A DNA stretch of 64,000 nucleotides from a bacterium (GTDB lineage Bacteria > UBA8248), in the NCBI GenBank assembly GCA_965261085.1, contig OZ253442.1, forward strand, positions 3,232,001-3,296,000, read 5' to 3'. The translations under genes and the position numbers were made by a program. The first letter of the stretch is position 1; each line of letters opens with the position of its first letter. Under the pieces are notes generated by a model. The model saw only the letters and a program-made list of their open reading frames with translations, was not told where the DNA came from and did no database searches. Positions 19,856-61,125 of the stretch are shown here, piece after piece.

Positions 19856-22800
19856 TCACCAGCGCTTCGTGCCGCGCAGGGTGATTCCGCTTTCGGGTTC
19901 CCCGTCCCCGTCGGGTTCGGTGAGGCTCGCCTCGAGGCTTACTTCGAGCGAGGAGCCGAGCCTGAAGCGCGCGCCCGCGCGCCAGGTATCCCCGCCTTCT
20001 GAGAGCGCCACGCCCGTATAGGGCGTCAGCAGGCCGCGCATGGCGCCCAGCCCGTAGCCCACCTCGGCGTCCAACCGCGCGTCGGGGTCGAAGCTCCCCC
20101 CCGTGAGCGCGCGCTGCGACCAGAGGCGCTCCACCCCGCCCGAGGCCGCGCCCCAGGCGGAACCCACCCGCATCGTGAGTCCCCGGCCTCCTTCGCCGGG
20201 AGAGAGTACGAGCGAGGCGCTCACCCCCCATTCCTCATAATCGCGCTCCTCGTGGGCCAGGAGCCCCCGGGCGCGCACTTCCACCGCGAAGCCCTTCAAA
20301 CCCGCCCAGCGCAGGCCGCCCCCGAGTTCCACGCCGCTTCCCGTCTCCGCGTCGCCTCCGTCATGGCGAAGGCCCACCTCGAGGGAGGGTGTCAGCACGC
20401 CGCTTTCGAGCTTCACCTCGCGCGAGCCCTCAAGCGTCAGGCGCAGGCGCCTCGTGCGCGCATCCGCCGCGGCGAGTCCAGCCGCCGCTTCCGATTCGGT
20501 CCGCACGAAGAGGACGTCGGTCTTCACCGCGAGGTCGTAGCCCCCAACGGAGGCGAGCTTGCCCCGGGCCCCGAACGCCGACATCGCGAGCGAGACGTCC
20601 GTCTCGATACGCTCGTTCGCCTCGTCCGCTTCTCTCGCCGCTATATCGAGCGTCAACCCGCCCTCGCCCAGGCCCAGGACGCCCCAGACCGAGAGGCGCT
20701 CGCTCACCGTGTAGCGCAGGTAGGGGTAGGCGCTCGCGAGCGTCGATTCCACCTCGCCCCCCCGCGCGTCGGCGCCCGTGTAGGAACCCTCCCCGGTGCT
20801 GTAGGCGAGCGCCACGCCCGCGAGGACCCTGCCCCGCTCGTAATCAGCGCCCATCACGCCCGTCGATACGTCTCCTTTGAGCGTGAGCGCGTCCTCCCTG
20901 CCGCTGAAACTCGAGCGCGACCCCCGGGCCCACAGCGACCAGCGCCCATCCCCGCCGTCCGCGGAGGCCAGGTGGAGTGAACTCGCCATCAGCAGCCCGG
21001 CCGTCGATATCTCTTGCGCGGGCGATTCGTCCGCCTCCGCCCGGAGGATATACTTCCTCTCCCTCAAGTCCTGCCCGAGGACGCCGGCCTCCCCGAGCAA
21101 GGCGTCCTCCGCCCGGGGCCAGGAAGCGCCCAGGACCACCTGGTGGCCGCCGATCGTCAACTGCGCCGGACCCGGAGAACTCCCCTCGAAGCGCGCGCCC
21201 ACGGCATCGAGCACCTGTTCCGCGACCGTGCGCCCGAAGCGTGACAACCATGCCCGTTGCAACGGGTCGGAGTTCACGATGGTGCCGATGGCTTTCCTGT
21301 CAGTTATCCGCGCACCCGAGGCGTTGGTGAGCTTCAACTTCATCGTCTCGCTTCCCTCATCGTGCGCATCGTCCAGGACCGGGACCGCCACCGTCCTGGT
21401 GGTCTCCCCGGCGGCAAACGTCAACGTCCCGCTGGTGGCGGTATAGTCTTGCCCGGCAATCGCCGTCCCGTTCCGGGTGAAATAGTCCACCGTCACCGTA
21501 CTCGTCGCGGAGCGGCTCAAGCTCACCACAAAGTCCAGTTGCGCACCTGCGCCTTCCGTCACGGTGGCGTCGGCCACCGAGATCCCCACCGGACCGTGGA
21601 TCGTTGCCGCCAGGGCATTCGAGAGTGGTCGATCATCGTTGGTGCAGATCGCCCCGGAGGCGGTGCAGTTCTTCGTGGCGGGCAATATCACCGTCACCGC
21701 ACCGTTCCCCGAGGGCTGCACCGTCATCGCCCACGTCTGATTACCGCCTTTGGTGGCCCGCTTCGCTTTCGTCACGCCGCCCCCCGTCACGTCGAAGGCG
21801 TCGTCACGGAGCGTCCGATAACTCAAGCCCCTCACGTCTTCACTAAACGTGAGCGTGAACGTAAATGGATGGGAGCCGTCATGCTCAGCCGGCAAATTCG
21901 ACAATGCCGCCGTGAGCGGCGTCGCCGCATGCCGGCTCTGCGCCACCGGACCCGGCACGCTGCGGGCCAGCCCCGTCGACAGCGCCCGCCCGTCCGCCGT
22001 ACAGAGCGCGCCCGCCTCCGTGCAGGCGCGGCCCAGCGGCGTGAGTATCGACACCGGACCGCTCCCGGCCGGCTCCACCGTCAGTTCCCACAGGTCCTTG
22101 CGGCCGTCCACCCGCGCGGCGGCCGTCACCGTCCCGCCGCTCACCGTCAGCGCGTGGTCGCGCATGTCCTGCGGCGTTATCTCCACCTCCGCGCTGAACG
22201 CGATACGGAAGGTGAACGCGCTCGACCCGTCGTGGTTCGACGGCACGTCCTCGAACGCCGCCGTCAGCGGGGTCTTTTCTGTCTCCTGCGCGCCCGTGTT
22301 GGAACAGCTCAAATGCACGTCCTCATCGTGGGTGCAGTTGTTGAGCCCCCAGCCCGCGTGGTAGCAGTGGTGCAGCTTGGTCGCGGGCTTCCCGGTCCAG
22401 TGGTTGGACCCGTCGGCGCACCGCACGTCGTCGAGCCAGATCTTCTGCGACGACGGCGCCACGGGTATGCTTGCTATTCTTGAGTCGCCTCGCTTCACCC
22501 ACTCGCCGGTCGCGTAGCCCATGAACTGGCAGGCTTTCTCCGGCGCGATGTTGCCCGGGTTGTCCAGGCGGTCGTCGCACACCGTGCCCCACTGCCCCTT
22601 GTGGAACACCTCCAGGCGGCCCACGTCCTCGGTGGGGCCGTCAGTCAGGCGCAACTCGCCGTTCACCCCGCTCGCCGGATACTCGTTGCTCGTCAGCGGT
22701 CCCTCCCTGAAGCCCGCGTCATCGGTGAAGCTCACCTTCACCTTGAACGTCTTGCCCGCGTCCGCCTGGACCAGCGTGTAGGTCTTCGACATCGCGCCCG

Positions 22801-24928
22801 CGATGTTCGTCTCGTTCGACCCGTCCACGCGGACCCACTGGTAGGTGAAGCTGGACGGCAACCCGTCAGCGTCCATGATGCCCGAGGTGCCGGCCCTCAG
22901 GGTCTGGCCCACCTGCGCCGCGCCGGAAATCTTCGGCTTGCCCGTCGCCGGGGTGTTGGTGGTGGTGGTGGTGGATTCTGTCAGCTTCAGTTCGACCTCG
23001 TCGCCGCTCGACCAGCTCAGGCCGGAGTTGTTCCAGTACCGGGCCAGCGTGAGCTTCTGATCCGCCTCCTCGAAGGCGAAGGTGTCGGAACCGACGTGAA
23101 GCACCAGGGACCGGCTGCCGGTGGCGATGTTGGGCAAAACCCACAGCTGGAGCTCGCCGCCGGAGCGCACCTGCACCGACGTCACGGCGTAGTCGGTCAT
23201 GGCGTGGGTGAACTCGTCCTCCGTGAGGTGGGCGGCATTCGAGCAATGATTGCCCGTGGAACCGTTCGCGCAGCCACGGTGCCCGTCGTCGAGGTCTTGC
23301 ACCGTCAGGGTCGCGCACCAGACGGCGTCGGCGGGGCACGACGTCTGCGCTCCCGTCGATCCGGTTCCGCTCGGCGACCACGCGCCGTCACCCTCGGGGT
23401 TTCTCGCGAGCACCTGCACCCGGTATTCCGTGCCCGCATCCAGGCTCCCGATGCTCGCGGTCGCCCCGGTCTGGTTCCGGGGACCGTTGGTCCAGCCCGA
23501 CTCCGTGGTCTTCTGGTAGCGCAGGTCGTAGTTCGTTATCCCCGGGCGGCCCGTGTTCGACGGCAGCGTCCAAGTCACATCCAGGCTGGTGGTCGATCCC
23601 GCGGTCGCCGACACCGAGGGCCTGTTCGGCGCCAGCGGCGCCTCGTCCTGGTCCGTGACGTTCAGCGTCACGGTGATCGTGTCGGAACCGCCGTTGCCGT
23701 CCTCGACCTTGACCATCACCAAGTAGCTCGTATTCGCCTCGTAAGAGTATTTTTCCCCGGCCTTGGTCTGAATCTGGCCGTTCGTCCCAATGATCCCGAA
23801 TCTGGCCGCGTCCGTGCCTTCCAGGCTGTAGAGCAGCGTGTCGCCGACATCCGTGTCCGTCGCGGCGATCCGCGCACCGATATTCGCCGCCGTCGAGACC
23901 GCCTCGTCGCCTATCGTCTCGTTGAAGGCCCGCGTCGCGTCGGCGCCCTCCGTGAAGGTCGGATTGGCGTTGGTGGTGGTGGTGGCCGTGCGCGTCACCA
24001 CGACCGTGTAGGTCTTCGTGGTGGTCGTGTCCTCGGCGGTTACCGTCACCGTGATCGTGTTGTCGCCCTCCGAGAGGTTCACCGTGGCCGTGTTCGGCGT
24101 GCTCGTGTCCGTGTCGCCCGTGATCTCCACCGTCGCATTGCTGTCGTTCTTCGTCGCCGTCACCGTGGTCTGCGTGACGGAGTTCGCCACCGTTGCGTTG
24201 TAACCCTCCGTGGCCGGCGCGAATACCGGGCTGAGCGTGACGCCGCTCAGCGCCAGCGCGTTCAGCGTCGCGTCGGTGGAGGTGGTGGTGGTGCCGTCGC
24301 CTACGGTGATGATCATGCCGTCTTCTCTCGGCATGCCGTCGCTTTTTATGGCGCCGAACTCAATGGTACTGCCAAGGGGCGCATCGGCGCCCACGTTGAA
24401 CGTGGCGGTAAGCGTGTGCGGCGACGTGCCGGAGAGAACTTCATAGCGGGTGTCGTGTCCCTTCACGTTGTCCCAGATACCGTCTGGCGGAGGCCCTCCT
24501 CCGCTGAAGGAGATGCAGAATTGTTTCGGCGAGGTGCAATCGTTCGGATCGGTTCCCAGCTTGTCCTGATTGTCCGAGGTGTCGGGCAGGTGGAATCCAG
24601 CGTATTCGTTTTGTGGTTTGGTCCCCGACGCCAGCGTGATCGTGAAGGTATATGTGCTCCCTGCTTCCACTGACGGGTATCCTGTCAGCGTCCAGGTCGC
24701 GCCCGCCGCTGTTTGCGTGATCGACGTCTGCGCCTGGGCCTGAAGGGGCAGGGCCAGGAGCGCGGCGAAGGCCACGAGAAGCACTACCGCAAGGCAGCGC
24801 GCCGCGAGTAAGCGCACGCGCAAACGTCCAGGCCGACCCGGTTCGGCTATCATCAGAGCGTCATCGTTTAGAGCGGCATCGTTTCTTCCGGCTTCAACAC
24901 CCGTATCGAATTTTCCGCGTTTTTGCAT
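19856..24928 (-). CDS. Large multidomain autotransporter adhesin (cadherin-like, FN3, SRCR, Ig-like repeats, Calx-beta, beta-barrel)
   Basis: Start moved to MQKRGKF (GGAGGG RBS; same N-terminus at 26375 and 46061); signal peptide ends AQA/QT; SRCR motif GRLEVFHKGQWGTVCDD...IWLDDVRC...NCTHDEDVHLSC; Calx-beta GTAIAGQDY; barrel ends in terminal Trp. Confidence 0.85.
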   Translation of the reverse strand: MQKRGKFDTGVEAGRNDAALNDDALMIAEPGRPGRLRVRLLAARCLAVVLLVAFAALLALPLQAQAQTSITQTAAGATWTLTGYPSVEAGSTYTFTITLASGTKPQNEYAGFHLPDTSDNQDKLGTDPNDCTSPKQFCISFSGGGPPPDGIWDNVKGHDTRYEVLSGTSPHTLTATFNVGADAPLGSTIEFGAIKSDGMPREDGMIITVGDGTTTTSTDATLNALALSGVTLSPVFAPATEGYNATVANSVTQTTVTATKNDSNATVEITGDTDTSTPNTATVNLSEGDNTITVTVTAEDTTTTKTYTVVVTRTATTTTNANPTFTEGADATRAFNETIGDEAVSTAANIGARIAATDTDVGDTLLYSLEGTDAARFGIIGTNGQIQTKAGEKYSYEANTSYLVMVKVEDGNGGSDTITVTLNVTDQDEAPLAPNRPSVSATAGSTTSLDVTWTLPSNTGRPGITNYDLRYQKTTESGWTNGPRNQTGATASIGSLDAGTEYRVQVLARNPEGDGAWSPSGTGSTGAQTSCPADAVWCATLTVQDLDDGHRGCANGSTGNHCSNAAHLTEDEFTHAMTDYAVTSVQVRSGGELQLWVLPNIATGSRSLVLHVGSDTFAFEEADQKLTLARYWNNSGLSWSSGDEVELKLTESTTTTTNTPATGKPKISGAAQVGQTLRAGTSGIMDADGLPSSFTYQWVRVDGSNETNIAGAMSKTYTLVQADAGKTFKVKVSFTDDAGFREGPLTSNEYPASGVNGELRLTDGPTEDVGRLEVFHKGQWGTVCDDRLDNPGNIAPEKACQFMGYATGEWVKRGDSRIASIPVAPSSQKIWLDDVRCADGSNHWTGKPATKLHHCYHAGWGLNNCTHDEDVHLSCSNTGAQETEKTPLTAAFEDVPSNHDGSSAFTFRIAFSAEVEITPQDMRDHALTVSGGTVTAAARVDGRKDLWELTVEPAGSGPVSILTPLGRACTEAGALCTADGRALSTGLARSVPGPVAQSRHAATPLTAALSNLPAEHDGSHPFTFTLTFSEDVRGLSYRTLRDDAFDVTGGGVTKAKRATKGGNQTWAMTVQPSGNGAVTVILPATKNCTASGAICTNDDRPLSNALAATIHGPVGISVADATVTEGAGAQLDFVVSLSRSATSTVTVDYFTRNGTAIAGQDYTATSGTLTFAAGETTRTVAVPVLDDAHDEGSETMKLKLTNASGARITDRKAIGTIVNSDPLQRAWLSRFGRTVAEQVLDAVGARFEGSSPGPAQLTIGGHQVVLGASWPRAEDALLGEAGVLGQDLRERKYILRAEADESPAQEISTAGLLMASSLHLASADGGDGRWSLWARGSRSSFSGREDALTLKGDVSTGVMGADYERGRVLAGVALAYSTGEGSYTGADARGGEVESTLASAYPYLRYTVSERLSVWGVLGLGEGGLTLDIAAREADEANERIETDVSLAMSAFGARGKLASVGGYDLAVKTDVLFVRTESEAAAGLAAADARTRRLRLTLEGSREVKLESGVLTPSLEVGLRHDGGDAETGSGVELGGGLRWAGLKGFAVEVRARGLLAHEERDYEEWGVSASLVLSPGEGGRGLTMRVGSAWGAASGGVERLWSQRALTGGSFDPDARLDAEVGYGLGAMRGLLTPYTGVALSEGGDTWRAGARFRLGSSLEVSLEASLTEPDGDGEPESGITLRGTKRW

Positions 24929-25410
24929 TCTGAACGACCCTCCGTGCCTGTAAAAAAGAACCTGCCTTTTCCGGTGAACGTATTTGCGCACCCGGCGGCG
25001 GGGCGCCGGGTCGCCGTCTGTCCGTTTCCCTGGGCCGTGGCCTCCTGCGGCCGCCTCGAACCACGCGCGCCGCCGATAGTTGCGATTTAGTAACTGATAA
25101 TTGTTCCAACCGGGGCAATGGGCGCCCCGGCTCAACTCGTTTCTCCTCGCCGGGGGATCCGGAAAATCCCCCAAACACTCACACTCACCGAAAACTCCCC
25201 GTGAACCGCCCAAGGGTTGCTCTACGGAGCGCTGTAAATTATAAGACCCATTTATAGCATAAATTGTGTGAACTTATAGTGAGCATTTGCGCCATTTTAG
25301 TGTTTTTATCGTGTTATTTTGGATAAATTCCGCTGTGGGGCGGCAACTGCGCCGTGTACAAGGGGTTCCAAAACGGTTCGCCGAGGGTGGGACGCAGGGA
25401 CGCCGTCCGC
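24725..25410 (-). repeat. ~685-bp direct repeat copy 1 (promoter cassette + leader + RBS + signal peptide); copy 2 at 26175-26855
   Basis: Near-identical sequence from the AQAQT codons to GGGACGCCGTCCGC in both copies. Confidence 0.92.
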
Positions 25411-25490
25411 CTCACTCTCCCGGAATATGACCGCGTCGGCGGCGAACAGGGCTACGCCGGAACCGGAAAGACCGCGATGCTGAACCGCGC
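25110..25490 (-). promoter_or_regulatory. Conserved expression cassette copy A
   Basis: TATAAT (minus) 25238-25243; half-sites CAC-gataa-aaa-CAC-18bp-CAC-tataa-gtt-CAC in 25267-25316; leader hairpins; relaxase-relic tail. Confidence 0.75.
25354..25490 (+). pseudogene. Fossil fragment of a MOBF (TrwC/TraI-like) relaxase-helicase
   Basis: GRRDAVRLTLPEYDRVGGEQGYAGTGKTAMLNRA matches the helicase motif-I context GQ..AV..IL...DR..GVQGYAGTGKTTML. Confidence 0.7.
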
Positions 25491-26375
25491 CCTTCGTCTT
25501 GCCGTCAGCGTCCGTGATGCCGGTGGTGGCCGCCGTCAGGGTCCGGCCCACCTGCGCCGCGCCGGAGATCGCCGGCTTGCCCGCCGCCTGGGTGTTGGTG
25601 GTGGTCCCGTCAGCAACAACCGTGAATATCCCGGACAAGCCGTAGTATGGCTTAAGATTACCTGAGGGGGCGCCGTTTTGACTGAGTTCAAAACCCGGGT
25701 TTGCTGGAAATCCCTGGTAGACCTGGCCCGTTGCGCCGAGATGAAAAATCCCGGAAATCTCCCCGCTTGGATTACAGCCTTGAAACGTCGAAACGTCCGG
25801 CTAGCATTACCAATGGGCGTGGTCCCGTCCGGGAATTTGGGCGCATTGGAATCCCAGCCCCCGTCGTACAGATCCGCATAGTTGGCCACCTTGTTCCCGT
25901 TGAGCCAGTAGATCGGGGCACTCGTGTCGCTGCCGGCCGTGCTGGTGTTCACGATGGCGCTGGTGCTCGTAGTACACCCGAGGACCTTGAAAATCGAGGA
26001 GTGGCTTTGAATGTCCGTATGGCCGTTGGCCGATACGTCGGTCTGGAGAAACGTGTTGTAGGTCGCGATGTCCGTGGCTGTTGCGTTCCTTGTTCCGGAC
26101 GTGACGACCAGCAGGCGAAACGAGTCACCTACCCCCAGGCCGCTTGGCACCAGGCTCCAGTTCGCCGTCACCGTCGTCTGCGCCTGGGCCTGAGGGGGCA
26201 GGGCCAGGAGCGCGGCGAAGGCCACGAGGAGCACGGCAGCGGCGCGCGCCGCGAGTAAGCGCACGCGCAAACGCCCCGGCCGACCCGGTTCGGCTATCAT
26301 CAGAGCGGCATCCTTTAGAGCGTCATCGTTTCTTCCGGCTTCAACACCCGTCTCGAATTTTCCGCGTTTTTGCAT
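25491..26375 (-). pseudogene. Truncated and frameshifted paralog of the autotransporter (different first passenger domain)
   Basis: Same N-terminus/signal peptide as the 24928 gene; an 8-bp tandem duplication GAAACGTC (25782-25797) shifts the frame; removing it gives a continuous frame to ...YYGLSGIFTV...GKPAISGAAQVG...DADG, then the gene is cut off at cassette A. Confidence 0.85.
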
Positions 26376-26556
26376 TCTGAACGACCCTCCGCGCCTGTAA
26401 AAAAGAACCTGCCTTTTCCGGTAAACGTATTTGCGCACCCGGCGGTGGGTCGCCGGGTCGCCGTCTGTCCGTTTCCCTGGGCCGATGCCTCCTGCGGCCG
26501 CCTCGAACCACGCGCGCCGCCGATAATTGCGACTTAGCAACTGATAATTGTTCCAA

Positions 26557-26855
26557 CCGGGGCAATGAGCGCCCCGGCTCAACTCGTTTCTCCTCGCCGG
26601 GGGATCCGGAAAATCCCCCAAACACTCACACTTACCGAAAACTCCCCGTGAACCGCCCCGTAGTTGCTCTACGGGCGCTGTAAATTATCAGACGCATTAA
26701 AGCATAAAATATGTGAACTTATCGTGAGTATTTCCGCTAATTGCGTGTTATTATCGTGTTATTTTGGACGAATTCCGCCGTGGGGCCGCAACTGCGCCGT
26801 GTACAAGGCGTTCCGAAACGATCCGACGACGGTGGGACGCAGGGACGCCGTCCGC
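26557..26855 (-). promoter_or_regulatory. Conserved expression cassette copy B
   Basis: GATAAT (minus) 26684-26689; CAC-gataa-taa-CAC-18bp-CAC-gataa-gtt-CAC; same leader hairpins as copy A. Confidence 0.75.
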
Positions 26856-26865
26856 AGCGGACGCC

Positions 26866-26946
26866 GCCCCGGTCGAGGAAGGCGACGTGTTGGTGGCGAT
26901 CGAGGCGATGAAGATGGAAACCGTGGTCCGCGCCGAGCGGAGCGGA
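26866..26946 (+). pseudogene. Biotin-carboxyl-carrier (biotinyl domain) fragment
   Basis: PVEEGDVLVAIEAMKMETVVRAERSG contains the EAMKM biotinylation motif. Confidence 0.7.
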
Positions 26947-27139
26947 CGGCGACAAACCGGGGGATGAGGAATGCGCCTCGCGAGCTTAAGCCAAAGGGGT
27001 TCCGAACGCATCGGCGCCCGGCCTTCCTTGAATCTTCTCCAGAGTCATCCGAATCGACCCCCGGCCGGAGCGATTTTTTGAGACCACCCCTATCGAGGCG
27101 AAGGCGCATTTCCCCGCATTTGCGGTGACGGGACGCGGG

Positions 27140-27270
27140 AGAGCGCGTGTATGATGGCGAAGCGCATCGCCGCGTTCGAGAATAAGGAATTTCTGAAAAA
27201 TACGATAAATTCACGGGGTTTTTCGATAAAAAAATAAAGGTTTAACTTATTGATATATATTGAGTTAAGA
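27140..27270 (-). repeat. Integrase-associated AT-rich end element (inverted copy of 41183-41330)
   Basis: rc TAACTCAATATATATCAATAAGTTAAACCTTTATTTTTTTATCGAAAAACCCCGTGAATTTATCG...TTTTTCAGAAATTCC matches 41183-41277; contains an IHF-consensus site TATCAA-N4-TTA. Confidence 0.8.
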
Positions 27271-43070: not shown

Positions 43071-43216
43071 GCGGCCCCACAGCGGAATCCTACCATAAAC
43101 ATGATAAAGACACGAAATATCCAGAACTATCCACGCTAAGTTCACGAATTTTGTGCTTTTAATCATTAAATGAATAGTTATTCATATCACTCCGGAGAGC
43201 AACTTCGGGACGGGGA
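43071..43216 (+). promoter_or_regulatory. Conserved expression cassette copy E (diverged, opposite orientation)
   Basis: GCGGCCCCACAG...CAT-gataa-aga-CAC-18bp-CAC-gctaa-gtt-CAC...TTTTGTGCTTT...CTCCGGAGAGCAAC; ends 36 bp before the 43252 ATG. Confidence 0.7.
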
Positions 43217-43251
43217 CTCATTCGTTATTAACTCTAGAAAGGTAACGGACC

Positions 43252-43635
43252 ATGCCTGACGACTATACGAACAATACGTCTACCACCGGCGCGGTGGAGG
43301 TCGGCGGCTCGGCGACGGGCGATATTGAGACCAGGGGCGACCGCGACTGGTTCGCGGTGACCCTGGGGGCGGGCACGACCTACCGGATCGACCTGGAGGG
43401 TTCGGAGACCGGGGCCGGCGCCCTGAGGGACCCGTACCTGCGCGGGGCCCACGACGCGGACGGCAACCTCCTCGCCGCCACGACGGATGACGACGACGGC
43501 GCGGGCTACAACAGCCGGGTGTATTTCACGGCGGAGGAGGACGCCACCTACTATGTGGCGGCCGGCGCTTATGGAAACTGGCGAGGCGCCTACACGCTGT
43601 CGGTGGCGGATGTCACGGACGATTTCGAGGCCGGG
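43252..43635 (+). pseudogene. Truncated PPC-domain secreted protein (paralog of the 57029-60280 gene)
   Basis: MPDDYTNNTSTTGAVEVGGSATGDIETRGDRDWFAV...YYVAAGAYG...YTLSV; homology ends near 43635. Confidence 0.8.
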
Positions 43636-43707
43636 GACCGGGACGAGCCGGATGCGAGCGGTCACGGGCCGCTGACGTTCAGACTTGTATATCCCTGGTT
43701 GCCTGCC

Positions 43708-44030
43708 TCACGAGCCGTACCGGAGTCTCTCCACGGCTCCCTGTTCCGTCGGCTCCCCTTGCGCGTAGCGTCCCGGCATGACGGGCGAAGACCAGCGTCC
43801 CGCGGCCTGCATCTCGGCCAGGGAGGCGCCTGCGCTAGCCAGGCTCTGCACACCGCCCACGCGCAGGCTGTGGCCGCTGACCCGCCCGTCCGCACCTGCG
43901 GCCTTCCCCCACCGGGCGATGATGCACCGGATGCTCTTGCCCGTCAGGCGCTCGGAGCGCAACCGGCCCCCCTTGAAGAAGGCCCGGAACAACGCCCCTT
44001 GCCTCAGGCCGGAACCCAGAAGCCACGCCC
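43708..44030 (-). pseudogene. C-terminal fragment of a Cre-like tyrosine recombinase
   Basis: SGHSLRVG (HxxR), AGRWSS..MPGRY (catalytic Tyr); no N-terminal half. Confidence 0.8.
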
Positions 44031-44076
44031 GGTTGCGGACCGGGGTTCCACAGCTTGCAGGTACTGTCAACGACCC

Positions 44077-44222
44077 GGAGTCTCGAGACCGAAGGCGGAA
44101 GCAGCCCCAGGCCTGCGCTGACGTCGTCCACCTTCCCGAAAATTCCCAGAATATGGCGAAAAATTCGCCGGATACCCCCAATGTTGGAGGCGCGAAGAAG
44201 CGCACGCGTTTCTATACTTTAA
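44077..44222 (+). repeat. ~146-bp direct repeat copy 1 (luxR 3' end + putative promoter)
   Basis: Near-identical to 45755-45901; palindrome CCCCCAATGTTGGAGG 44175-44190; TATACT 44213-44218. Confidence 0.9.
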
Positions 44223-45901: not shown

Positions 45902-46060
45902 TTAGCACTCTCATAATCGCAAGTATCGGCGGCATGCGGGGCTCGAGGCGCTCGCACCGGCGTCTGCACCGGCGAGGCTACCGCTGCCCCGCCGCCGGAG
46001 ACGCAAATTCGTTCATGAGAAAAGCAGGTTCATTTTTACAGGCAAGGAGGTTCGTTCAGA

Positions 46061-49000
46061 ATGCAACCACGAGAAAAGTTCGACACGGGTGTTGACGCCG
46101 GAAGAAACGATGCCGCCCGCACGAACAACGGTTCGACCACCGACTCCGGCATACGGGGACCACAGAAATCAGACAAGGGGGCCTGCGGGCCGCCATCCGC
46201 CTCCTCCCCGAAGGCCGGTCTTTTTGCGCGGGCGCTTGCATGCGCCGTCGCCCTGGCGCTGGCCACCATGCTGGCGTTCGGCGCGGGTGATGCGTCGGCT
46301 GCGGGCGTGTGCAGAAACACGCCCGAAACCGGGGAAAGGGTCGAGTGTAAGAAGGATTCCAGTTCCAGCGACAACATCGAAATCCAACTTGACGGAATCG
46401 ACATCGACACGACGGATGGGGGCGGCCACGGCGTTCATGCCGAGCATCAAGGCGACGGACACATCGATATCGGGATCGACACCGACTTTGCAGAAGGTGA
46501 CCGAGACACCTACAGCACCATCGTCACGACCGCCAGCCGCAACTACGGTATCTACGCCCATCATCTCGGCGACAACTCGGTGGTGACAAGCACGTTTTCT
46601 GCCACCATCGGCACCCAGGGCAATTATGCCCCCGCCATCTATGGCCGGCACGAGGGTAGCGGGCTCCTCAGAATCAGATCTTTGGGGGACGAAATCACTA
46701 CCACAGGCGCTTATTCCCATGGCATCTATGGCCATCATTTCAGCACCGGGGATATCGAGATCGACGTTAGTAGTGACATCGAGATACGAAATACCAAATC
46801 CTACGGCGTCTTTAGTACACATCACGGCACCGGTGATATTCGCATCAATCTCACAGACACCGTCAAAACATCTGCCTATACGTCTTCCGGCGGTATCTAC
46901 GCCGTGCATTGTGGCTTCGACAGCACAGACTCCTCAGGATGTCTTTTACCTGCACTCGACACCCTTAGTAGCGGAGATATCCGCATCAATGTCAATAATT
47001 TCAAATTCCTCCCTTTGAACAGCAGTGCCGCCATTAGCGGCTACAGCATCGAAGCCCTTCATTCGGGTGACGGCGACATCCATATTGATGCTCGAAATGG
47101 AACCTTCACCCTGGTGGGTCGAAGTGGCGATGGCATCACGGGCCGCAGTCGCGGCACCGGCAACATCAACATTTATGCGGAAGAAGTCACAATTCACACG
47201 AATGGCGACAGTTCAGTAGGCATCTTCGCAGTCGCCGAAAGCGCGCTTGGTCCCCAGCAAGTCGAAATCACCACCCAGGAAGTGGATGTAACCACGGAGG
47301 GCCCCAGATCCCACGGAATTTGGGGTTCGAATCAAACCGCGGGTGGTGTTACCTTAGACGTACAGGGTGGAACCTTGACTCTTAATGGCAGGGAATCACA
47401 CGCCGTTTATAGTACCGTTTCTGCTGGGAATATCTCCGACATCGATGTCCAGAACGCCACTATCATCATGGGGCTTGGGAATAATGGCGGCCACGGCGTT
47501 CAAAATGATATGGGCGGCATCGGCGACAGCAATACCGACGTGCGGGATACCACCATCATCACGAAAGACGATGATTCCCGCGGCATCGTGGGCCGGCATA
47601 GGAGCACGGGCGACATCGACATCGAAGTCCGAGGCGGCTCCATCAAGACGAGCGGCGAGTATGCGTATGGCATCTATGGTCTTCATCAAGGCGAAGGCAA
47701 CGTCACGCTCAATATGCAAGACGGCAACGCCGTCACCACGACGGGCGAGAACGGCCACGGCATCGTGGCCTATAATTTCGGAACGATGGACTCCAGGACC
47801 ATGGCGATCACGGTCGGCGGCCGCGTCGACACGAGTGGCGCGGGCGCACAGGGCGTCCGGGTGGGCGTCGTCAATACCGACGGCGCGCCAGAGCGCGTAG
47901 CCGCCCTGGACGACGCGGAGGGCTATCGTAAGCAGACGGTCACGGTGAACGGCTCGGTGATGGGCGAGGCCGTGGGCGTCTTCCTTGCGGGCGGCGGCCG
48001 GGTCGTCATCGGGCCGCAGGGGACAGTCGGCGCAGAATCCGGGATCGCGATTCTCGCGTCGGGAGATACGCCTGTAGAAGGCGGAGATCCAATCAAGCCC
48101 AAGCTGCTCGTCGACATGACGCTCGACGGCCGCCGGGTGCGGGACGTATTCGGGGATGACTGGATCATCAACGACGAAGGCGAGACCACCATCGTGGTCA
48201 ACGAGGTTATGCTGCACGAGGGCGCGAAGGGCGTCGTGCCCGGCGCGGTGGCCCCCAACGGGGCGTGGAACGTCCGGATGAGAGCGGAAGGCGTCAACGT
48301 GGACTACACCATGGACCCGGCGAACTGGGAAATGATCGTGCCCACCGCGGGCGTCGTCGTCGACCGGGATTTCTCGGCGGCGGACTTCACGGAAACCCAG
48401 AAGCCAACTATGCCGCCGCCCATGTGCCCTGAAGGACAAGTCGGGACGCCTCCAGACTGCACCACGCCACCCCCACCCATGTGCCCTGAAGGACAAGTCG
48501 GGACGCCTCCAGACTGCACCACTCCCCCGCCGCCTATGTGTCCGCCGGGACAAGTCGGGACGCCTCCAGACTGCACCACGCCACCCCCACCCATGTGCCC
48601 TGAAGGACAAGTCGGGACGCCTCCAGACTGCACCACTCCCCCGCCGCCTATGTGTCCGCCGGGACAAGTCGGGACGCCTCCAGACTGCACCACTCCCCCG
48701 CCGCATATGTGTCCGCCGGGACAAGTCGGGACGCCTCCAGACTGCACCACTCCCCCGCCGCATATGTGCCCGGAAGGACAAATCGGGACGCCTCCAGACT
48801 GCACCACTCCCCCGCCGCATATGTGTCCCCCGGGACAAGTCGGAACGCCCCCGGACTGCACCACTCCCCCGCCGCCCATGTGTCCGTCCGGGCAGGTCGG
48901 GACGCCCCCGGACTGTTCCGCTCCGCCGCCTGAGATTTTCGAGGAATACGCCCCGCGCGCGGCGGTCTATGAGGCCCTGCCGGGCTTTTTGCTGAAACTG

Positions 49001-53456: not shown

Positions 53457-55022
53457 TCAGATGCCTTCGACCCCGCCGTCGTCCACCGTCGTTTCCTGGA
53501 AGATGAAATCACTGGCATCGAGATCCGCCATGTCGAAGTTCTCCAGGGTGATCGTTCCGCCGCCGTGGGTGATCACGGCATTGCCGCCATCGGCGGTGAT
53601 GGCCAGATCATCGAAGCCGGAAATGCCCGAGATCGCCGTGAGGTCGATCATGTCTTCCCCGTCGGTGAAATCCTTGATCGTGTCCGCGCCGTGGTCGGGG
53701 GTGAACACGAAGGTGTCCGCGCCCGCGCCGCCAAATAAGGTATCGTCGCCCGCGCCGCCATCGAGCGTGTCGTCGCCCGCCCAGCCGTGGAGCGTGTCGT
53801 CGCCCGCGCGGCCCGTGAGCGTATCGTCGCCCGCGTCGCCGCCATCGCCGCCGCCATAGATGATGTCGTCGCCCAATCTGCCTGTCACCGAATCGTCGCC
53901 CTCGGTGCCTTCATATCTCCCGCCAGTGAAAAACCTGAAATCATCCGCACTCAGTTCCGTAACCTGGACACCCTCCAGCCGGATGGTGCCGCCGCCGAAG
54001 GCGCTCAAGTCGATGACGGCGTCATTTCCATCGGCGGTGATGGGCAGATCATCAATACTCATCACGTTCTTGACATTGGAAAAATCGATTACGTCGCCGC
54101 TGGAGAAGTCCGTGATCGTGTCGTCGCCGTGGCCTTCGAAGGGCACGAACACGTCGCCGGTATCGGCGAACACGAACGTGTCCGCTCCATCTCCGCCCGT
54201 TAGCGTATCGTCGCCCTCTCCGCCCGTTAGCGTATCGTCGCCCTCTCCGCCCGTTAGCGTATCGTCGCCCTCGTCGCCATAGATGGTGTCGTCGCCCGCG
54301 CCGCCATCGAGCGCATCGTCGCCCTCACCGCCTCTTAGAGTGTCGTTGCCCGCGCCGCCGGAGATGGTGTCGTCGCCCGCGATGCCATAGAGCGTATCGT
54401 CGCCCTCGCCGCCATAGAGCGTATCGTCGCCCGCGTCGCCAACCAAGGTGTCGTCGCCCGCGCCGCCATCGATGGTGTCGTCGCCCGCGTTGCCATAGAG
54501 CCTGTCGTTGCCCTCGCCGCCATCGAGTGTATCGTCGCCCTCACCGCCGTAGATCCAGTCGTTGCCCGCGCCGCCATCGATGGTGTCGTCGCCCGCGCCG
54601 CCACTTAGGGTGTCGCCGCCCTCGCCGCCATAGATGGTGTCGTCGCCCGCTTCGCTATAGATGGTGTCGCCGCCCGCGTCGCCGGAGATGGTGTCGTCGC
54701 CCGCGCCGGCGGAGATGGTGTCGCCGCCCTCGCCGCCGGAGATGGTGTCGTCGCCCGCGCCGCCATAGATCATATCGTTGCCCGCGCCGCCATAGAGTGT
54801 ATCGTCGCCCTTGCCGCCACTTAGTTTGTCGCCGTCCGCGTCGCCAGAGAGTGTGTCGTCGCCCGCGCCGCCATAGAGTGTATCGTCGCCCGCGTTGCCT
54901 CTTAGAGTGTCTTTGCCCGCGCCGCCATAGAGTGTATCGTCGCCCTCGCCGCCATAGAGCTTGTCTTTGCCCTTGCCGCCAGAGATACTGTCGTCGCCGT
55001 CGCCGCCGTATTGTGTTGGCAT
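53457..55022 (-). CDS. RTX calcium-binding repeat protein (probable type I secretion substrate)
   Basis: Two blocks of GGxGDD nonapeptides, each followed by a GADTFVF...IDLS.. domain; ends DDGGVEGI; same 5' flank AGGGGAAACGACATGCC as the 53388 gene. Confidence 0.9.
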   Translation of the reverse strand: MPTQYGGDGDDSISGGKGKDKLYGGEGDDTLYGGAGKDTLRGNAGDDTLYGGAGDDTLSGDADGDKLSGGKGDDTLYGGAGNDMIYGGAGDDTISGGEGGDTISAGAGDDTISGDAGGDTIYSEAGDDTIYGGEGGDTLSGGAGDDTIDGGAGNDWIYGGEGDDTLDGGEGNDRLYGNAGDDTIDGGAGDDTLVGDAGDDTLYGGEGDDTLYGIAGDDTISGGAGNDTLRGGEGDDALDGGAGDDTIYGDEGDDTLTGGEGDDTLTGGEGDDTLTGGDGADTFVFADTGDVFVPFEGHGDDTITDFSSGDVIDFSNVKNVMSIDDLPITADGNDAVIDLSAFGGGTIRLEGVQVTELSADDFRFFTGGRYEGTEGDDSVTGRLGDDIIYGGGDGGDAGDDTLTGRAGDDTLHGWAGDDTLDGGAGDDTLFGGAGADTFVFTPDHGADTIKDFTDGEDMIDLTAISGISGFDDLAITADGGNAVITHGGGTITLENFDMADLDASDFIFQETTVDDGGVEGI

Positions 55023-55058
55023 GTCGTTTCCCCTGTATTTAAGAAATTTTCTTCACCC

Positions 55059-55387
55059 GCAACGAAAACTCCCCGTGCACCACCCATAGTTGCTCTACGG
55101 AGCACTGTAAATTATCACACCCATTAAAGCACAAAATGTGTGAACTTAGTGTGAACATTTGCGACAATTACGTGTTTTTATCATGTTATTTTGGATAAAT
55201 CCCCCTGTGGGGCCGCAACCGCGCCGTGGACAGGGCGCTCCGAAACGATCCGCTGACGGTGGAACGCCGTCAGGCTCATTCTCTCGGAATATGACCGCGT
55301 CGGCGCCGAGCCCGATACCCTCGTCTTGCATGGCCACTGTATCGACTTCACCCTGAGTAGCCGCCGAAGGTCAAACGCGACTGAAAA
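55059..55387 (-). promoter_or_regulatory. Conserved expression cassette copy C (distal tail continues at 56910-57012 beyond the IS)
   Basis: GATAAT (minus) 55111-55116; perfect direct repeat TGTGAAC-ttag-TGTGAAC 55139-55156; colinear with 60383-60797 once the IS is removed. Confidence 0.78.
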
Positions 55388-56909
55388 GGGGTTGTTGAAA
55401 AACCCCTGACTCTATGCTTGGATGTATGGATATTACGCGCCCGAGAAGGGAATATCCGCGATGTTGGGACGCAAGAACCGCGCCCAGATGGATTTGTTCA
55501 TCACCGGTTCGCTGGAGAGGTTGATTCCCGAGGATCACATATTGGCCCGCGTGAACCGCGTTCTGGACCTGAGTTGGCTGCGCGAGGAAGTGGCGGATTG
55601 TTATTGCGCGGACAACGGCCGTCCTGGGATCGACCCCGAAGTGGCGGTTCGGTTGATGTTGGCGGGCCTTCTGCTGGGGTTCGTGCACGACCGTCGGTTG
55701 ATGCGCGAGGCGCAGGTGAACATCGCGATCCGGTGGTTCATCGGTTACGGGCTGGAGGATCGGCTGCCGGATCATTCGAGCCTGACGCGGATACGGCAGC
55801 GCTGGGGGGAGGCCCGGTTCCGGGAGATATTCCGCCGCACGGTCCGTGCGTGCCTGGATGCGAAGGTGGCCAAGGCCGAAGTCGTGCACGTGGACGCCTC
55901 ATTGATCCGCGCGGACGTGAGTTGGGAGAGTCTGGTGGAGCGTCACGTGGACGAGGTGATAGCGGAGAACCCCGTCGAGGAGGAGGCCGGGAAGAAGGGT
56001 GGAGGAGGCCGCCGTGGCGGGGGTTCCGGGAAGGTGAGCCGGACGGACCCGGACGCGCGGCTGGCGAGAACGGGCGGGGGATTCGAGCCGAGCTACAAGC
56101 AGCACGCTGTGGTGGACGACACGCGCGGGGTGGTGCTCGACGTATCGGTGACGGAGGGTACGGTGAACGAGCGTGAGGTGCTCGAATCGCAGGTGGAAGC
56201 GGTATGCGAGGTATCGGGGCGCGCGCCCGCGATGGTGACGGCGGACTCTGGCTACGCCTACTCGAAGGTCTACGCGGCCCTGGAGCGCCGGGGTGTGGCC
56301 GCGCTCATTCCGGCGAAGAGGGAACCCTCGCAGAGCCGTGTTCCGTTGCGCCTGTTCCGCTACGACGCGCGGCACGACATCGTGAAGTGTCCGCGCGGCA
56401 AGATACTGAGCCCCCGTCGGCCCGCAAAGGGGGGGCGTTATTATCGTTCGAAGACCCGTGATTGCGCGGGCTGCGCGCTTCGCGAGGATTGCCTGCCGAA
56501 GGCGTGGTCGAGCAAGGTGGTGTTGGTTCCGCATGCGTATCCGGCGCTGTTGCGCGCGCGCCGGCGCCATGCGCGATGGAGGGAGGAGGAGCGGCGGATG
56601 TACCGGCGTCATATGTGGCGCTCGGAGGGCTACCACGGCGAGGCGAAGACCTGGCACGGGCTTGCGCGCGCGGTGCGGCGCGGTCTTGAGAACATGAAGA
56701 TACAGTCCTACCTGACGGCGGCGGCGATCAACCTCAAGCGGCTCTCCGCCGCACTTGCTGCAAGGTTATTCGCCCTCTGGAGGGCCTGGTCGGCCCGGGA
56801 AGAGCCTCTGTGCGTCCATCGCGGCCTCGCAAGCTGCGCGGGCTTCCTGTCCGCCGCCGCGTGACCCTCCATACCGCCCGCTCCCGAAACCGGGTTATTC
56901 AACAACCCC
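55388..56909 (+). mobile_element. Complete IS1182-family insertion sequence
   Basis: 18-bp TIRs GGGGTTGTTGAAAAACCC (55388-55405) and GGGTTATTCAACAACCCC (56892-56909), 17/18 match; 5-bp target duplication GAAAA on both sides. Confidence 0.92.
55461..56864 (+). CDS. IS1182-family DDE transposase
   Basis: LIPEDH, GRPGIDP, PDHSSLTRIRQRWG, HVDASLI, SRTDPDA, TADSGY, CPRG, C..C.LR..C, E..HGEAKTWHGL. Confidence 0.92.
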   Translation: MLGRKNRAQMDLFITGSLERLIPEDHILARVNRVLDLSWLREEVADCYCADNGRPGIDPEVAVRLMLAGLLLGFVHDRRLMREAQVNIAIRWFIGYGLEDRLPDHSSLTRIRQRWGEARFREIFRRTVRACLDAKVAKAEVVHVDASLIRADVSWESLVERHVDEVIAENPVEEEAGKKGGGGRRGGGSGKVSRTDPDARLARTGGGFEPSYKQHAVVDDTRGVVLDVSVTEGTVNEREVLESQVEAVCEVSGRAPAMVTADSGYAYSKVYAALERRGVAALIPAKREPSQSRVPLRLFRYDARHDIVKCPRGKILSPRRPAKGGRYYRSKTRDCAGCALREDCLPKAWSSKVVLVPHAYPALLRARRRHARWREEERRMYRRHMWRSEGYHGEAKTWHGLARAVRRGLENMKIQSYLTAAAINLKRLSAALAARLFALWRAWSAREEPLCVHRGLASCAGFLSAAA

Positions 56910-57028
56910 GAAAAAGGAGCGTTTGTATCGAAGGGCGCTCCCTTTCGATGCGCCCCGGCGCTCCCTCGATACGGCGCGCGAGCGCGCCTACTCGGGATGA
57001 GGGAGGAGTGTTGTCGCCGCCGCGCACG

Positions 57029-60000
57029 TCACATGGAATCTTCCACCACCGACAGCGTGTAGGTGCCTGTATCGTATCCCCAGGCGCCGGCCGCCACATA
57101 GTAGGCGCCGGCTTCCTCCGCCGTGAACGTCACCCGGGCGTTGTAGCCCGCGCCGCCGTCGTCGTCCGTCGTGCCGGGGATGAAGTTTCCGTCCGCGTCG
57201 TGGAGCCCGTACAGATACGGGTCACTCAAGGTGCCGCTCCCGGTCGGCGAGCCCTTGAGGTCGATCCGGTAGGTCGCGCCCGCCTCGAGTTCCACCGCGA
57301 ACCAGTCGCAGTCGAACGAGATCTCGATATCGCTCGTCACCGAGCCGCCCACCTCCACCGCGCCGCTCGTCCCGGTACCCGCCGCCAAATCGTCCGGGAC
57401 CTCAGTCACCGACAGCGTGTAGGTGCCTTTACTGTCATATTCACCGCCGCCGGTGTATACATAGCTGTTGCCGGCCACCAAATAGTAGGTGCCGGCATCC
57501 GTCGCCGTGAACGTCACCCGGGCGTTGTAGCCCGCGCCGCCGTCGTCGTCCCACGTGTAGAGGATACGGACGCCGTCCGCGTCGCGGACCGAGCCCAGAT
57601 GCGGGTTCCTCATGGTGCCGCCCCCGGTCCACGAGCCTTCCAGGTCGATCCGGTAGGTACTGCCCGCCTCGAGCTCGACGGCGAACCAGTCGTGGTCGTT
57701 AAATACATGGATCTTGCCCGTCGCCGAGCCGCCCACCGCAACCCGGCCGGTCGTGGAGGTGTCTTCCGGAAGGTCCTGGCCGTCCGGTTCGGACACACTC
57801 TGTTGCGTCTCCGTAACCTCCTGCGCTTCGGCCACGTCGGTGACGTTGACGGTGACGGTCACCTCGCTGTGCAGGCTGCCGTCACTCGCCCGCACCGTCA
57901 GTTCGTACCGGGTCGTCCCCGACTCGTAGTCCTCGCCCGCGCCCTGGTACGACAGGGCGCCCGTCCCCGGGTCGATGGCGAACAGGCCACCGGAGTCGCC
58001 CGCCTCGATGCTGTAGGTAATCGTCGAGTTTTCCGGGTCCGTCGCCGATACCGCGCCCAACGCTACACTGGCCGCGCCGCCGTCGGCGTTCTCCGCCAGT
58101 GAGAACGCATAGCTCCCCTCCGCGAACGCCGGCGCTTCGGCCACGTCGGTGACGTTGACGGTGACGGTCACCTCGCTGTGCAGGCTGCCGTCACTCGCCC
58201 GCACCGTCAGTTCGTAGCTGGTCGTCCCCGACTCGTAGTCCTCGCCCGCGCCCTGGTACGACAGGGCGCCCGTCCCTGAGTCGATCTCGAACAGGCCACC
58301 GGAGTCGCCCGCCTCGATGCTGTAGGTAATCGTCGAGTTTTCCGGATCCGTCGCAGAGACCGCGCCCAACGCTACACTGCTCGCGCCGCCGTCGGCGTTC
58401 TCCGCCAAGTCGAACGCATAGCTCGTCTCCGCGAACGCCGGCGCTTCGGCCACGTCGGTGACGTTGACGGCCACGGTCACGTCGCTGTGCAGGCTGCCGT
58501 CGCCGGCGCGCACCGTCAGCTCGTAGCTGGTCGTCCCCGACTCGTAGTCCTCACCCACGCCGATGTAGAACACCTCGCCGCTCGTCGCGTCGATCTCGAA
58601 CAGGCCACCGGAGTCGCCCGCCTCGATGCTGTAGCTCACCGCCGCATCTTCGGGGTCCGTCGCCGATACCGCGCCCAGAGACACCCCGTTCGCGCCCCCG
58701 TCCGCGTTCTCCGCCAGTGAGAACGCATAGCTCGTCTGCCCGAACGCCGGAGGACCGTTCACGGTTTTCTGCTGTGCGGTCTGAGGCGAGACGTCCCTGA
58801 CCTCAACCTCGTAGGCGCCGAGTCCGGAGTAGGCGCCGGCGATGATGTAATGTGTGCCGCTCTCGGTCGGGGTGAAGTTCAACCGGCTGTTGTAGCCTTC
58901 GCCTCCATCGTCGTTGGACACGCCCGCAATTCGGCTGCCGTCAGGGCCCTTGATGCCGCGCAGATACGGATCGTTCAGTGTGCCGTCGCCCGTCGGGCTG
59001 CCCCTGAGATCGATGATGTAGGTCCGCCCCGCAACCAGCTCCACCGCAAACCCATCCCGGTCGCCCGTGCTCCCGATCTTGCCGGTAGCGGTGCCGCCGA
59101 CGGCAACCCGGCCAATCGTCGATGTATTCGTGGGAAGGTCCTCGCCGTACGGCTCGGACACGCTCTGCAAGTTTTCCGGGTCGGCCGGCGCGACAATCGT
59201 TTGCTCCGGCACGTCCGTAATGGCGACGCTCACCGCGGCGTCGGCGGTCAGAGCGCCGTCGCTCGCCCGGATCGTCAGGTCGAACTGCGCCGCGCCGGCC
59301 TCGTAGTCCTCGCCCGCCCCGACGTAGAACAGCTCGCCGCTCGCCGCGTCGATCTCGAACGACCCTGACTCGTTGCCGCCCTCGATGCTGTATGCGACCG
59401 TGTCATTGTCCGGGTCCGTGGCCGTAACCGCGCCCAGAGATACCCGGTCCGTGCCCCCGTCCGCGTTCTCCGCGAGTGAGAACGCGTAGCTCGCCTCCGC
59501 GAACTCCGGCGCCTCATCCGTCCCCTCCTGCTGCTGCTGCTCCAAGGCGGCCACCACGTCGGGATTGGCCCCACTCACCCCATAACGCAGTTTGAATTCG
59601 TTGGCGCCTTCTTCCTGCGCTTCCACCCGCACGAAATACGTCCCGGCCAGGAGCGTCTGCGAAATCCACTCGCTCGCCGTCCCCTCCTCCGTGCCGCTGT
59701 AGAGGACGTTGCCTTCGGCGTCCTCCAGAAACAGGTCGGCATTCGCATCCTGTTGGCGCAAACCCAGTCCAACCCTCCTGGCCTCCGAAAGCGTGAAGCG
59801 CCAGTAGTCCACCGAGTCGGAGGAGCCGTCGAGTGATGCTGCCGGAAACTGCAGCCCGGCGAGAGCCGTGATATCGCCGAGATCGGTCGCGCCGCCGCGC
59901 TCGGCGTCCGTATCCACCCATTCCGTCACGCGCACGGTGTACTCGCCCGTCTGATTCGAATGGCCGCGAGCTTCGATATAGTAGGCGCCGGTGGTGGCGG

Positions 60001-60305: not shown

Positions 60306-60797
60306 CCGGGGCAATGGGCGCCCCGGCTCAACTCGTTTCTCCTCGTCGAGGGATCCGGAAGATCCCCCCCAAACACTCACACGCAACGAAAACTCCCCGA
60401 GTTTCGCCCCAGGGTTGCTCTACGGAGCGCTGTAAATTATCAGACCCATTTAAGCACAAAATGTGTGAACTTAGTGTGAGTGTTTGCGACAATTACGTGT
60501 TGTTATCGTGTTATTTTGTATGAATCCCCCTGTGGGGTCGCAACCGCGCCGTGGACAGGGCGTTCCGAAACGATCCGCCGACAGTGGGACAGTGGGACGC
60601 CGTCAGGCTCATTCTCTCAGAATATGACCGCATCGGCGGCGAGCCCGATACCCTCGTCTTGCATGGCCACTGTATCGACTTCACCCTGAGTAGCCGCCGA
60701 AGGCGGCATATCGAAGGGCGCTCCCTTTCGATGCGCCCCGGCGCTCCCTCGATACGGCGCGCGAGCGCGCCTACTCGGGATGAGGGAGGAGTGTCGT
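60306..60797 (-). promoter_or_regulatory. Conserved expression cassette copy D (leader hairpins + core + relaxase-relic tail)
   Basis: GATAAT (minus) 60436-60441; CAC-gataa-caa-CAC-18bp-CAC-actaa-gtt-CAC; + strand reads VDRAFRNDPPTVGQWDAVRLILSEYDRIGG. Confidence 0.78.
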
Positions 60798-61125
60798 CGC
60801 GGGTCGCCGCCCTGTTCGGGACGAGGGAGCCGCGCGGACATGTCGCGCCTAGATATTGATCAAATCCGCTTTCGTTTTGATTGCATATTTCAGAAGGCGG
60901 ATGACGGACGAGACGGGCAAGAATATATTTATAATGATATCAACAGGACAGCGTGATTTTGTGGCCGATGAAATAGCCTTGACGAGGCGATAATACTGAA
61001 AATATCGATAAATTCACGGGGTTTTTCAGTAAATTATTGAAACGCTAAATAATTGATTATAGGCGGTTTATGACGTTTCAGGCCGGAATGGAGGTCATTC
61101 CGGCCATGTAGGAGCGCAGCGCACG

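Follow-up and report, generated by a model that had tools for sequence, protein, structure and literature searches.

Putative mobile promoters were reportedly described by Matus-Garcia, Nijveen and van Passel in 2012. They consist of similar upstream DNA that is found before non-paralogous genes within one genome (commentary PMC3575422). The locus analysed here is also related to the genes of the MOBF proteins TrwC (plasmid R388) and TraI (F), in that it aligns with the SF1B helicase domain start in this genome's own TrwC plus AAA_30 proteins, including the ...DR..GVQGYAGTGKT Walker A stretch. In contrast to those genes, the copies described here retain only ~60–390 nt of a ~2.85 kb gene, with no relaxase domain and no start codon, and most of the longer copies are frameshifted; they are remnants and not members of the family. 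Gene remnants, segmental duplication and the reuse of promoters are all known kinds of feature.

Here we report on the window, by which we mean the whole 64,000-nucleotide stretch of DNA that was analysed (bases 3232001–3296000 of a genome that is a single 4.27-Mb contig), and on related sequences elsewhere in the same genome. A relaxase-derived scrap, referred to below as the fossil, is found upstream of adhesin genes in this window. Our analyses indicate that it is very probably a non-functional MOBF scrap of single origin, and a hitchhiker on a promoter/leader module that was duplicated within the genome.

Identity of the relaxase fossil in copy A

The fossil of copy A lies at 25349..25495 on the + strand and corresponds to nt 1265–1408 of R1, one of the genome's own intact relaxase genes, at the start of the helicase domain with the Walker A sequence GYAGTGKT. 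The strand of the fossil is the one opposite that of the adhesin genes, as the initial annotation had it. Translation of the ORF at 25354–25665 (+) gave VYKGFQNGSPRVGRRDAVRLTLPEYDRVGGEQGYAGTGKTAMLNRA..., exactly the peptide that had been quoted for copy A, and the peptides quoted for copy D (60551–60643), copy B (from 26799) and the shortened copy C (55257–55310) were all recovered by tblastn. The relaxase frame of fossil A is still open, and an own start codon is absent. Caution is warranted in annotating such scrap, since it yields spurious ORFs, of which 25354–25665 (+) is an example.

Five open relaxase genes of ~950 aa were identified in the genome: R1 (genome 2491064–2493919), R2 (1157467–1160532), R3 (3718114–3721179), R4 (219755–222604) and R5 (1121398–1124751). 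All four of the intact relaxases scanned by Pfam as proteins (R1, R2, R4 and R5) had TrwC, AAA_30 and UvrD_C_2 domains. R1 passed the NCBIfam MobF model with 284 bits against a cut-off of 100, also passed relax_trwC, and matched the solved structures of TraI (E 2.8e-86) and TrwC (E 8e-63). A coupling-protein gene adjoins each of R1, R2, R3 and R4. R2 and R3, each with such a gene beside it, are identical in their Pfam scores and in their printed ends; one integrated element seems to be present twice here. An intact relaxase elsewhere in the genome had been proposed as the reference for defining the cassette boundary, and alignment to the genes found places that boundary at R1 nt 1258–1265.

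In blastn searches of the 4.27-Mb genome, positions 25349–25492 matched R1 nt 1265–1408 with 79.2% identity over 144 nt (E 1.4e-28), R2/R3 with 84.1% identity over 107 nt (E 7e-26) and R4 with 72.2% identity over 144 nt. Fossil A was 63% identical to the R1 protein over 49 aa (tblastn, E 8e-13). The fossils as a whole were 79–86% identical to the intact relaxase genes of their own genome at the DNA level, with E values to 1e-47 for the longest copy, F. Profile searches gave lower scores. The Pfam AAA_30 model scored 20.7 bits on fossil A (E 3.9e-4) and 25.2 bits on fossil F, both below its cut-off of 27 bits, and 18.8 bits on fossil A in a whole-genome scan; the NCBIfam TraI models gave E values of ~0.005–0.009 on fossil A. 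The sequence GYAGTGKT was seen in fossils A, F and G. The case for homology is therefore built on how well the fossils match the intact relaxases of this genome in DNA and protein (E 1e-28 to 1e-47). In the profile check that had been suggested for the tail, AAA_30 taken alone stayed under its cut-off (20.7 bits against 27), and it is the direct similarity to intact relaxases (E 1.4e-28) that upholds the proposal of a TrwC plus AAA_30 (MOBF) fossil. Judged from these alignments, the tail of copy A is an internal fragment of a MOBF (TrwC/TraI-type) relaxase-helicase gene.

The TrwC relaxase domain (PF08751 / NF041492) is missing from the fossil, which begins at ~nt 1258, past that domain. A full-length reading frame is also missing, with at most ~390 of ~2850 nt left in any fossil. 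Over 293 columns, the majority sequence of the fossils was 85.0% identical to R1, 79.9% to R2, 78.8% to R4 and 65.5% to R5. Either the scrap came from a donor other than these genes, or it was captured long ago.

The putative promoter/leader module and the genes behind it

Read from the gene outward, the repeated unit opens with a leader of ~110–150 nt in which GC hairpins are predicted. An AT-rich stretch of ~130 nt comes next, and after it the relaxase scrap, which points away from the gene. In copy A the leader part (25106..25189, −) is common to A/B and the D-type copies and has predicted GC hairpins. It is followed by the AT-rich part at 25190..25348 (−), as delimited by alignments. The end of this part is CCCCACAG (sense strand), and the junction with the relaxase scrap is ~8 nt further on. 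From its position, the AT-rich module would be a promoter. Copy B has leader and promoter at 26553..26793 (−) and its fossil at 26794..26852 (+; R1 nt 1265–1323). Copy C has the promoter part only (55053..55220, −), before an RTX-repeat gene at 53457–55022, and its fossil at 55221..55311 (+). Copy D has the full leader and promoter (60306..60545, −), before a PPC/Cadherin gene at 57029–60280, and its fossil at 60546..60644 (+; R1 nt ~1265–1363). Over 267 nt, copy A was 81% identical to copy C and 83.5% identical to copy D.

Twelve module-related copies were found in the genome. Nine bear the fossil, namely the four in the window (A, B, C and D) and five outside it (F at genome 3306046, G at 3325106, H at 1066928, I at 1071569 and K at 1873295). 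Copy J (genome 1621743) has the promoter part without the fossil, and copy L (43075..43251, +) is a diverged module without the fossil that precedes a truncated PPC-head gene at 43252–44121 (MPDDYTNN...), such that the fossil is present in 9 of the 11 copies having a promoter part; the remaining copy is leader only (genome 1876655–1876740). A further sequence, copy E (45915..46116, +), precedes an autotransporter gene and consists of an A-type gene head and near leader, with no module and no fossil. The initial annotation had noted that E lacks the tail, and indeed E has only the gene head in common with A and no cassette. Read contigs from runs X1 and X5 were short only; one X1 contig covers 25171–25539 with no difference, is possibly from the same source sample and does not count as independent.

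A sigma-70 consensus scan of copies A and D revealed no conserved site on the gene strand. When the leaders of six copies were folded as a consensus, hairpins were predicted, and as none of the 41 pairs had a compensatory change, a conserved leader structure is without support. The AT-rich module does contain, in alignments (e.g., at 60440–60520), the direct repeats TGTGA-N6-TGTGA and CGTGTT-N5-CGTGTT with 11-bp spacing. Paired direct repeats with such spacing are the layout bound by OmpR/PhoB-type regulators. Directly beyond module D, at 61379–63712 (−), is a gene for a fusion protein with GAF, PAS, histidine kinase, receiver and OmpR-type DNA-binding parts. This kinase-regulator and the module repeats are a candidate regulator-site pair.

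Adhesin gene A (19856..24930, −) encodes a protein with Cadherin-like, fn3, SRCR and Calx-beta domains. Its start codon is probably ATG 24928 and not TTG 25213, as a GGAGG site accompanies this ATG, which in alignments falls on the gene E ATG at 46061. The longest ORF of gene A (19856–25213, −) opens at TTG 25213, reads through the leader and is ~95 codons too long. We considered whether the conserved stretch beside the genes could be an N-terminal coding part, and rejected this; it is a 5' leader, and the genes start downstream at their own ATGs. Gene B (25536..26375, −) is a truncated tandem paralogue of gene A whose 3' remnant cuts fossil A at ~25495–25502. The D-type genes have an ATG with a good ribosome-binding site and begin MPDDYTSDT..., and the C-type genes begin MPTQYGGDGDD.... 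A PPC domain was identified in the D, F, G and L genes, with Cadherin also in D, F and G, and the H and K genes have the same MPDDY head as the D type. The copy C gene has RTX repeats by Pfam, and similar Ca-binding repeats are present in the translation of the copy I gene. Copy J stands before an ABC transporter gene for type I secretion, after which comes an HlyD-type gene. Two neighbouring ORFs, of 219 and 536 aa, make up the transporter gene (genome 1621942–1624212), which on account of this split is possibly broken.

The module thus fronts three unrelated gene heads: the A type (also found on gene E, which has no module), the D type (MPDDY..., PPC/Cadherin) and the C type (RTX). The joins between head and module differ, being at 25106–25110 for the A type and at anchor 25179 for the C type. 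Since the join points of the three head types differ, the module has recombined onto unrelated genes at least twice. The distance from the module to the probable start codon is ~30 nt in C, 26–265 nt in D and ~180–420 nt in A.

Ancestry, decay and flanks of the fossil

Relaxase homology starts at R1 nt 1258–1265 in all nine fossil-bearing copies, i.e., at one junction. The outer ends are nested, falling at R1 nt 1289 (K), 1307 (H), 1323 (B), ~1357 (C and I), 1363 (D), 1408 (A) and 1494 (F), and the copy G fossil runs to nt 1389 and, after an internal deletion, from 1597 to ~1640–1657. The nested ends, which reach ~1640–1657 in G, therefore indicate an ancestral scrap of at least ~390 nt. In an unrooted maximum-likelihood tree of 144 fossil columns, which took in six fossils of at least 85 nt, four relaxases of this genome and nine from related genomes, the fossils formed one group with support of 93/90. 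A second unrooted tree, from 126 promoter columns and no fossil columns, split the nine fossil-bearing copies from J and L with support of 95/92; both trees come from short alignments and show splits, not the direction of change. The tie of copies A–D to one ancestor that had been proposed is borne out by the common junction and by the single group in the two trees, and it takes in the five copies outside the window as well. By these sequence comparisons, the nine fossil-bearing copies are descendants of one composite ancestor.

The several relaxase genes in the genome could also have been possible targets for independent insertions of a promoter-bearing mobile element at a preferred site. However, insertions into separate relaxase genes are at odds with the grouping of the fossils together and not with different relaxases, and with the same split in the promoter-only tree. 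In addition, a whole-genome TrwC scan found no relaxase-domain remnant outside the five intact genes, and thus no relaxase 5' halves, and the 25050–25700 region, which spans the copy A module, junction and fossil, has no notable inverted repeats. We give this reading next to no credence and consider it largely refuted. An IS- or MITE-type element with an outward promoter was likewise rejected, as there are no notable inverted repeats in that region and both unit boundaries vary between copies. The initial annotation had also suggested a test for oriT-like features; 25050–25700 holds only two weak inverted repeats, neither of them in the module, and the fossil is internal coding sequence (nt 1265–1657).

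For a scrap of single origin, the comparisons suggest the following events, whose order we infer. One illegitimate join would have attached the relaxase scrap (from ~nt 1258–1265 onward) to an AT-rich promoter/leader module, at its gene-distal end; this module belonged to a type-I-secreted adhesin gene. This composite copy would then have been duplicated repeatedly inside this genome with the scrap as a passenger. Later trimming may have proceeded copy by copy, through deletions of various lengths and through an IS1182 insertion that C and I share with D, where remnants of it are left. The A/B pair would have come from a tandem duplication, and the module would also have recombined onto other gene heads. 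Recombination mediated by the fossil with the resident relaxase genes is an unlikely contributor, as the longest exact matches are 10–27 nt.

Decay of the fossil was evident in several copies. Copies C, G and I have a common 8-nt deletion at the direct repeat GACAGTGG, which is frameshifting in C, and the copy F fossil has several indels. Frame changes were present in four of the six longer copies (C, F, G and I), and blastx needs two frames. Differences of the copies from the majority base numbered 23/23/15 on codon positions 1/2/3, and the intact relaxases differ mainly at position 3 (R1–R4, 8/8/31; R1–R2, 12/13/28). The pooled pairwise identity was 88.4% in the promoter part and 88.5% in the fossil, so that no faster decay is visible in the fossil than in the part presumed to be functional. 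These equal values fit recent duplication, and constraint on the fossil would also be compatible with them.

Such constraint could mean that the fossil was co-opted, which would explain why it was retained; it might act as an insulator or a regulatory site upstream, or encode a divergently transcribed small RNA or peptide. Its presence in 9 of the 11 promoter-bearing copies and the identity equal to that of the promoter part agree with this, as does a sigma-70-like + strand site at 25251–25280 that points into the fossil ORF in copy A only. However, this site is missing in copy D, the outer ends are nested down to ~32 nt of fossil in K, and J and L have none, with J still heading a type I secretion ABC/HlyD operon. 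The frameshifts in four of the six longer copies and the absence of a codon-position bias in the changes also argue against co-option. Rfam revealed no family in 24800–27200 (E <= 1) beyond one chance-level match, RF01074, whose 23.8 bits fall short of the gathering score of 40. Fossils A and D remain open in the relaxase frame, which counts against neutral decay. We nevertheless infer that the fossil is neutral, and we consider its co-option improbable.

The flanks beyond the fossil have been subject to insertion and patching. An IS1182-family insertion sequence at 55329..57017 (+), with its transposase at 55422–56864 (356 bits against a cut-off of 270), truncates fossil C at ~R1 nt 1360. The same 1.7-kb element is at the same site in copies C and I, and in copy D the fossil is followed by only end remnants of it (~60662–60800). 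The outer flank of copy J consists of a fragment of a repeated 782-aa ORF and an IS1182 element. We therefore rejected copy J as a representative of the state before the junction, as with this flank it cannot show the module's original neighbour. The IS1182-family element end beside J (genome ~1621195–1621270) has three tandem copies of a 26-nt unit. The ~782-aa ORF is repeated at genome 276281–278629, 3786172–3788520 and 3701504–3703096 and is probably a mobile-element gene.

Fossils B, F and G run into sequence copied from a pyruvate-carboxylase-like gene, which comprises the final ~200 nt of that gene and what lies downstream of it. In copy B this scrap, comprising the 3' end and downstream sequence, lies at 26870..27132 (+), and its source at genome 3217501–3219750 is intact. 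The scrap is 82–99% identical to the source overall and 94–99% identical in the coding part. The junctions between fossil and pyruvate-carboxylase scrap differ among B, F and G, and are compatible with a single longer ancestor that was shortened by independent deletions. A short intergenic repeat at 27105–27253, which looks REP-like, bounds the scrap; it has dozens of copies in the genome, with a core (27197–27230) at 85–100% identity.

Since the source of the pyruvate-carboxylase scrap is still intact, the scrap is duplicative, and the flank can therefore take up patches from elsewhere. The relaxase scrap is, by analogy, no proof that this spot once held a relaxase. The ancestral cassette may have sat inside a conjugative element, as the initial annotation had it, and the pyruvate-carboxylase patch shows the other route. 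We regard an in-place remnant of a former relaxase and a patch copied from a relaxase elsewhere as about equally probable.

Spread of the module and comparison with described systems

The spread of the adhesin loci had been linked to conjugative elements, and if such elements had carried these loci, the fossil would be what remains of the vehicle. The relaxase origin of the fossil is in keeping with this, as are the five MOBF genes in the genome, four with an adjoining coupling-protein gene. The same island also contains a weak tyrosine-integrase fragment at 43759–43980 (−; PF00589, 26.8 bits), inside the truncated PPC-head gene region. However, no coupling-protein gene was found in the ~100-kb adhesin island, such genes being only beside four of the intact relaxases, and there is no relaxase-domain remnant besides the five intact genes. 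The longest fossils, F and G, run straight into housekeeping-gene scrap.

The distribution of the module also argues against a conjugative vehicle. A search of 40 related genomes, of which 22 belong to the same genus, did not find it; the matches there were to the relaxase part only (query 238–387) and were those genomes' own relaxase genes, with the exception of a 34-nt leader match (E 9.9e-4) in one genome, G007. Exact patterns of the junction and promoter core had 0 matches in each of four scans of two public contig collections (genome and metagenome), from which records of this genome or of near relatives are possibly missing. All 12 copies are in this genome, and the spread seen is therefore within it. 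The proposed link to conjugative elements was thus not sustained, and we consider carriage of the adhesin loci by such elements very improbable.

For the hitchhiking scrap, its value is that of a marker, as it shows nine upstream regions to be from one composite ancestor and sets them apart from the two fossil-less copies. It marks one promoter/leader module that was moved onto unrelated genes for secreted proteins of cadherin, SRCR, Calx-beta and RTX types. A tentative extension, which we find possible but rather doubtful, is that the AT-rich module is a transplantable regulatory unit with which one co-regulated secretion regulon was built in this lineage. If so, the regulon would unite a type I secretion operon with three or more unrelated families of genes for secreted adhesins of eukaryote-like kind and RTX proteins, and the relaxase scrap would be a built-in barcode for the order of the promoter transplants. 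Eukaryote-like proteins of this kind are discussed as symbiosis factors of sponge bacteria, and a traceable history of multiplied expression signals may be of some use to that field.

Of the described systems, putative mobile promoters are similar in that upstream DNA with 80–98% identity over >150 nt stands before non-paralogous heads, with no known mobile element. With thresholds of 80% identity and 50 nt in length before genes with non-paralogous coding parts, copies A and C (81%) and A and D (83.5%) would be counted among them. The interval of −150..−50 from the start codon used for such promoters (PMC3575422) overlaps the module only partly, and because module-to-start distances differ, several pairs would be missed with this fixed interval. 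In contrast to putative mobile promoters, most copies here also share a paralogous gene head and are therefore plain segmental duplications. A hitchhiking gene scrap that dates the copies is also absent from the description of those promoters. In the literature searched on relaxase pseudogenes and remnants, segmental duplication and adhesins, no description was found of a piece of a relaxase gene that had been multiplied together with a promoter module. Relaxase pseudogenes and decayed conjugative elements are comparable to the fossil in that a dead piece of a conjugation gene is left in the chromosome; what differs here is that the piece was amplified to nine copies by way of a promoter module and without other genes of the element.
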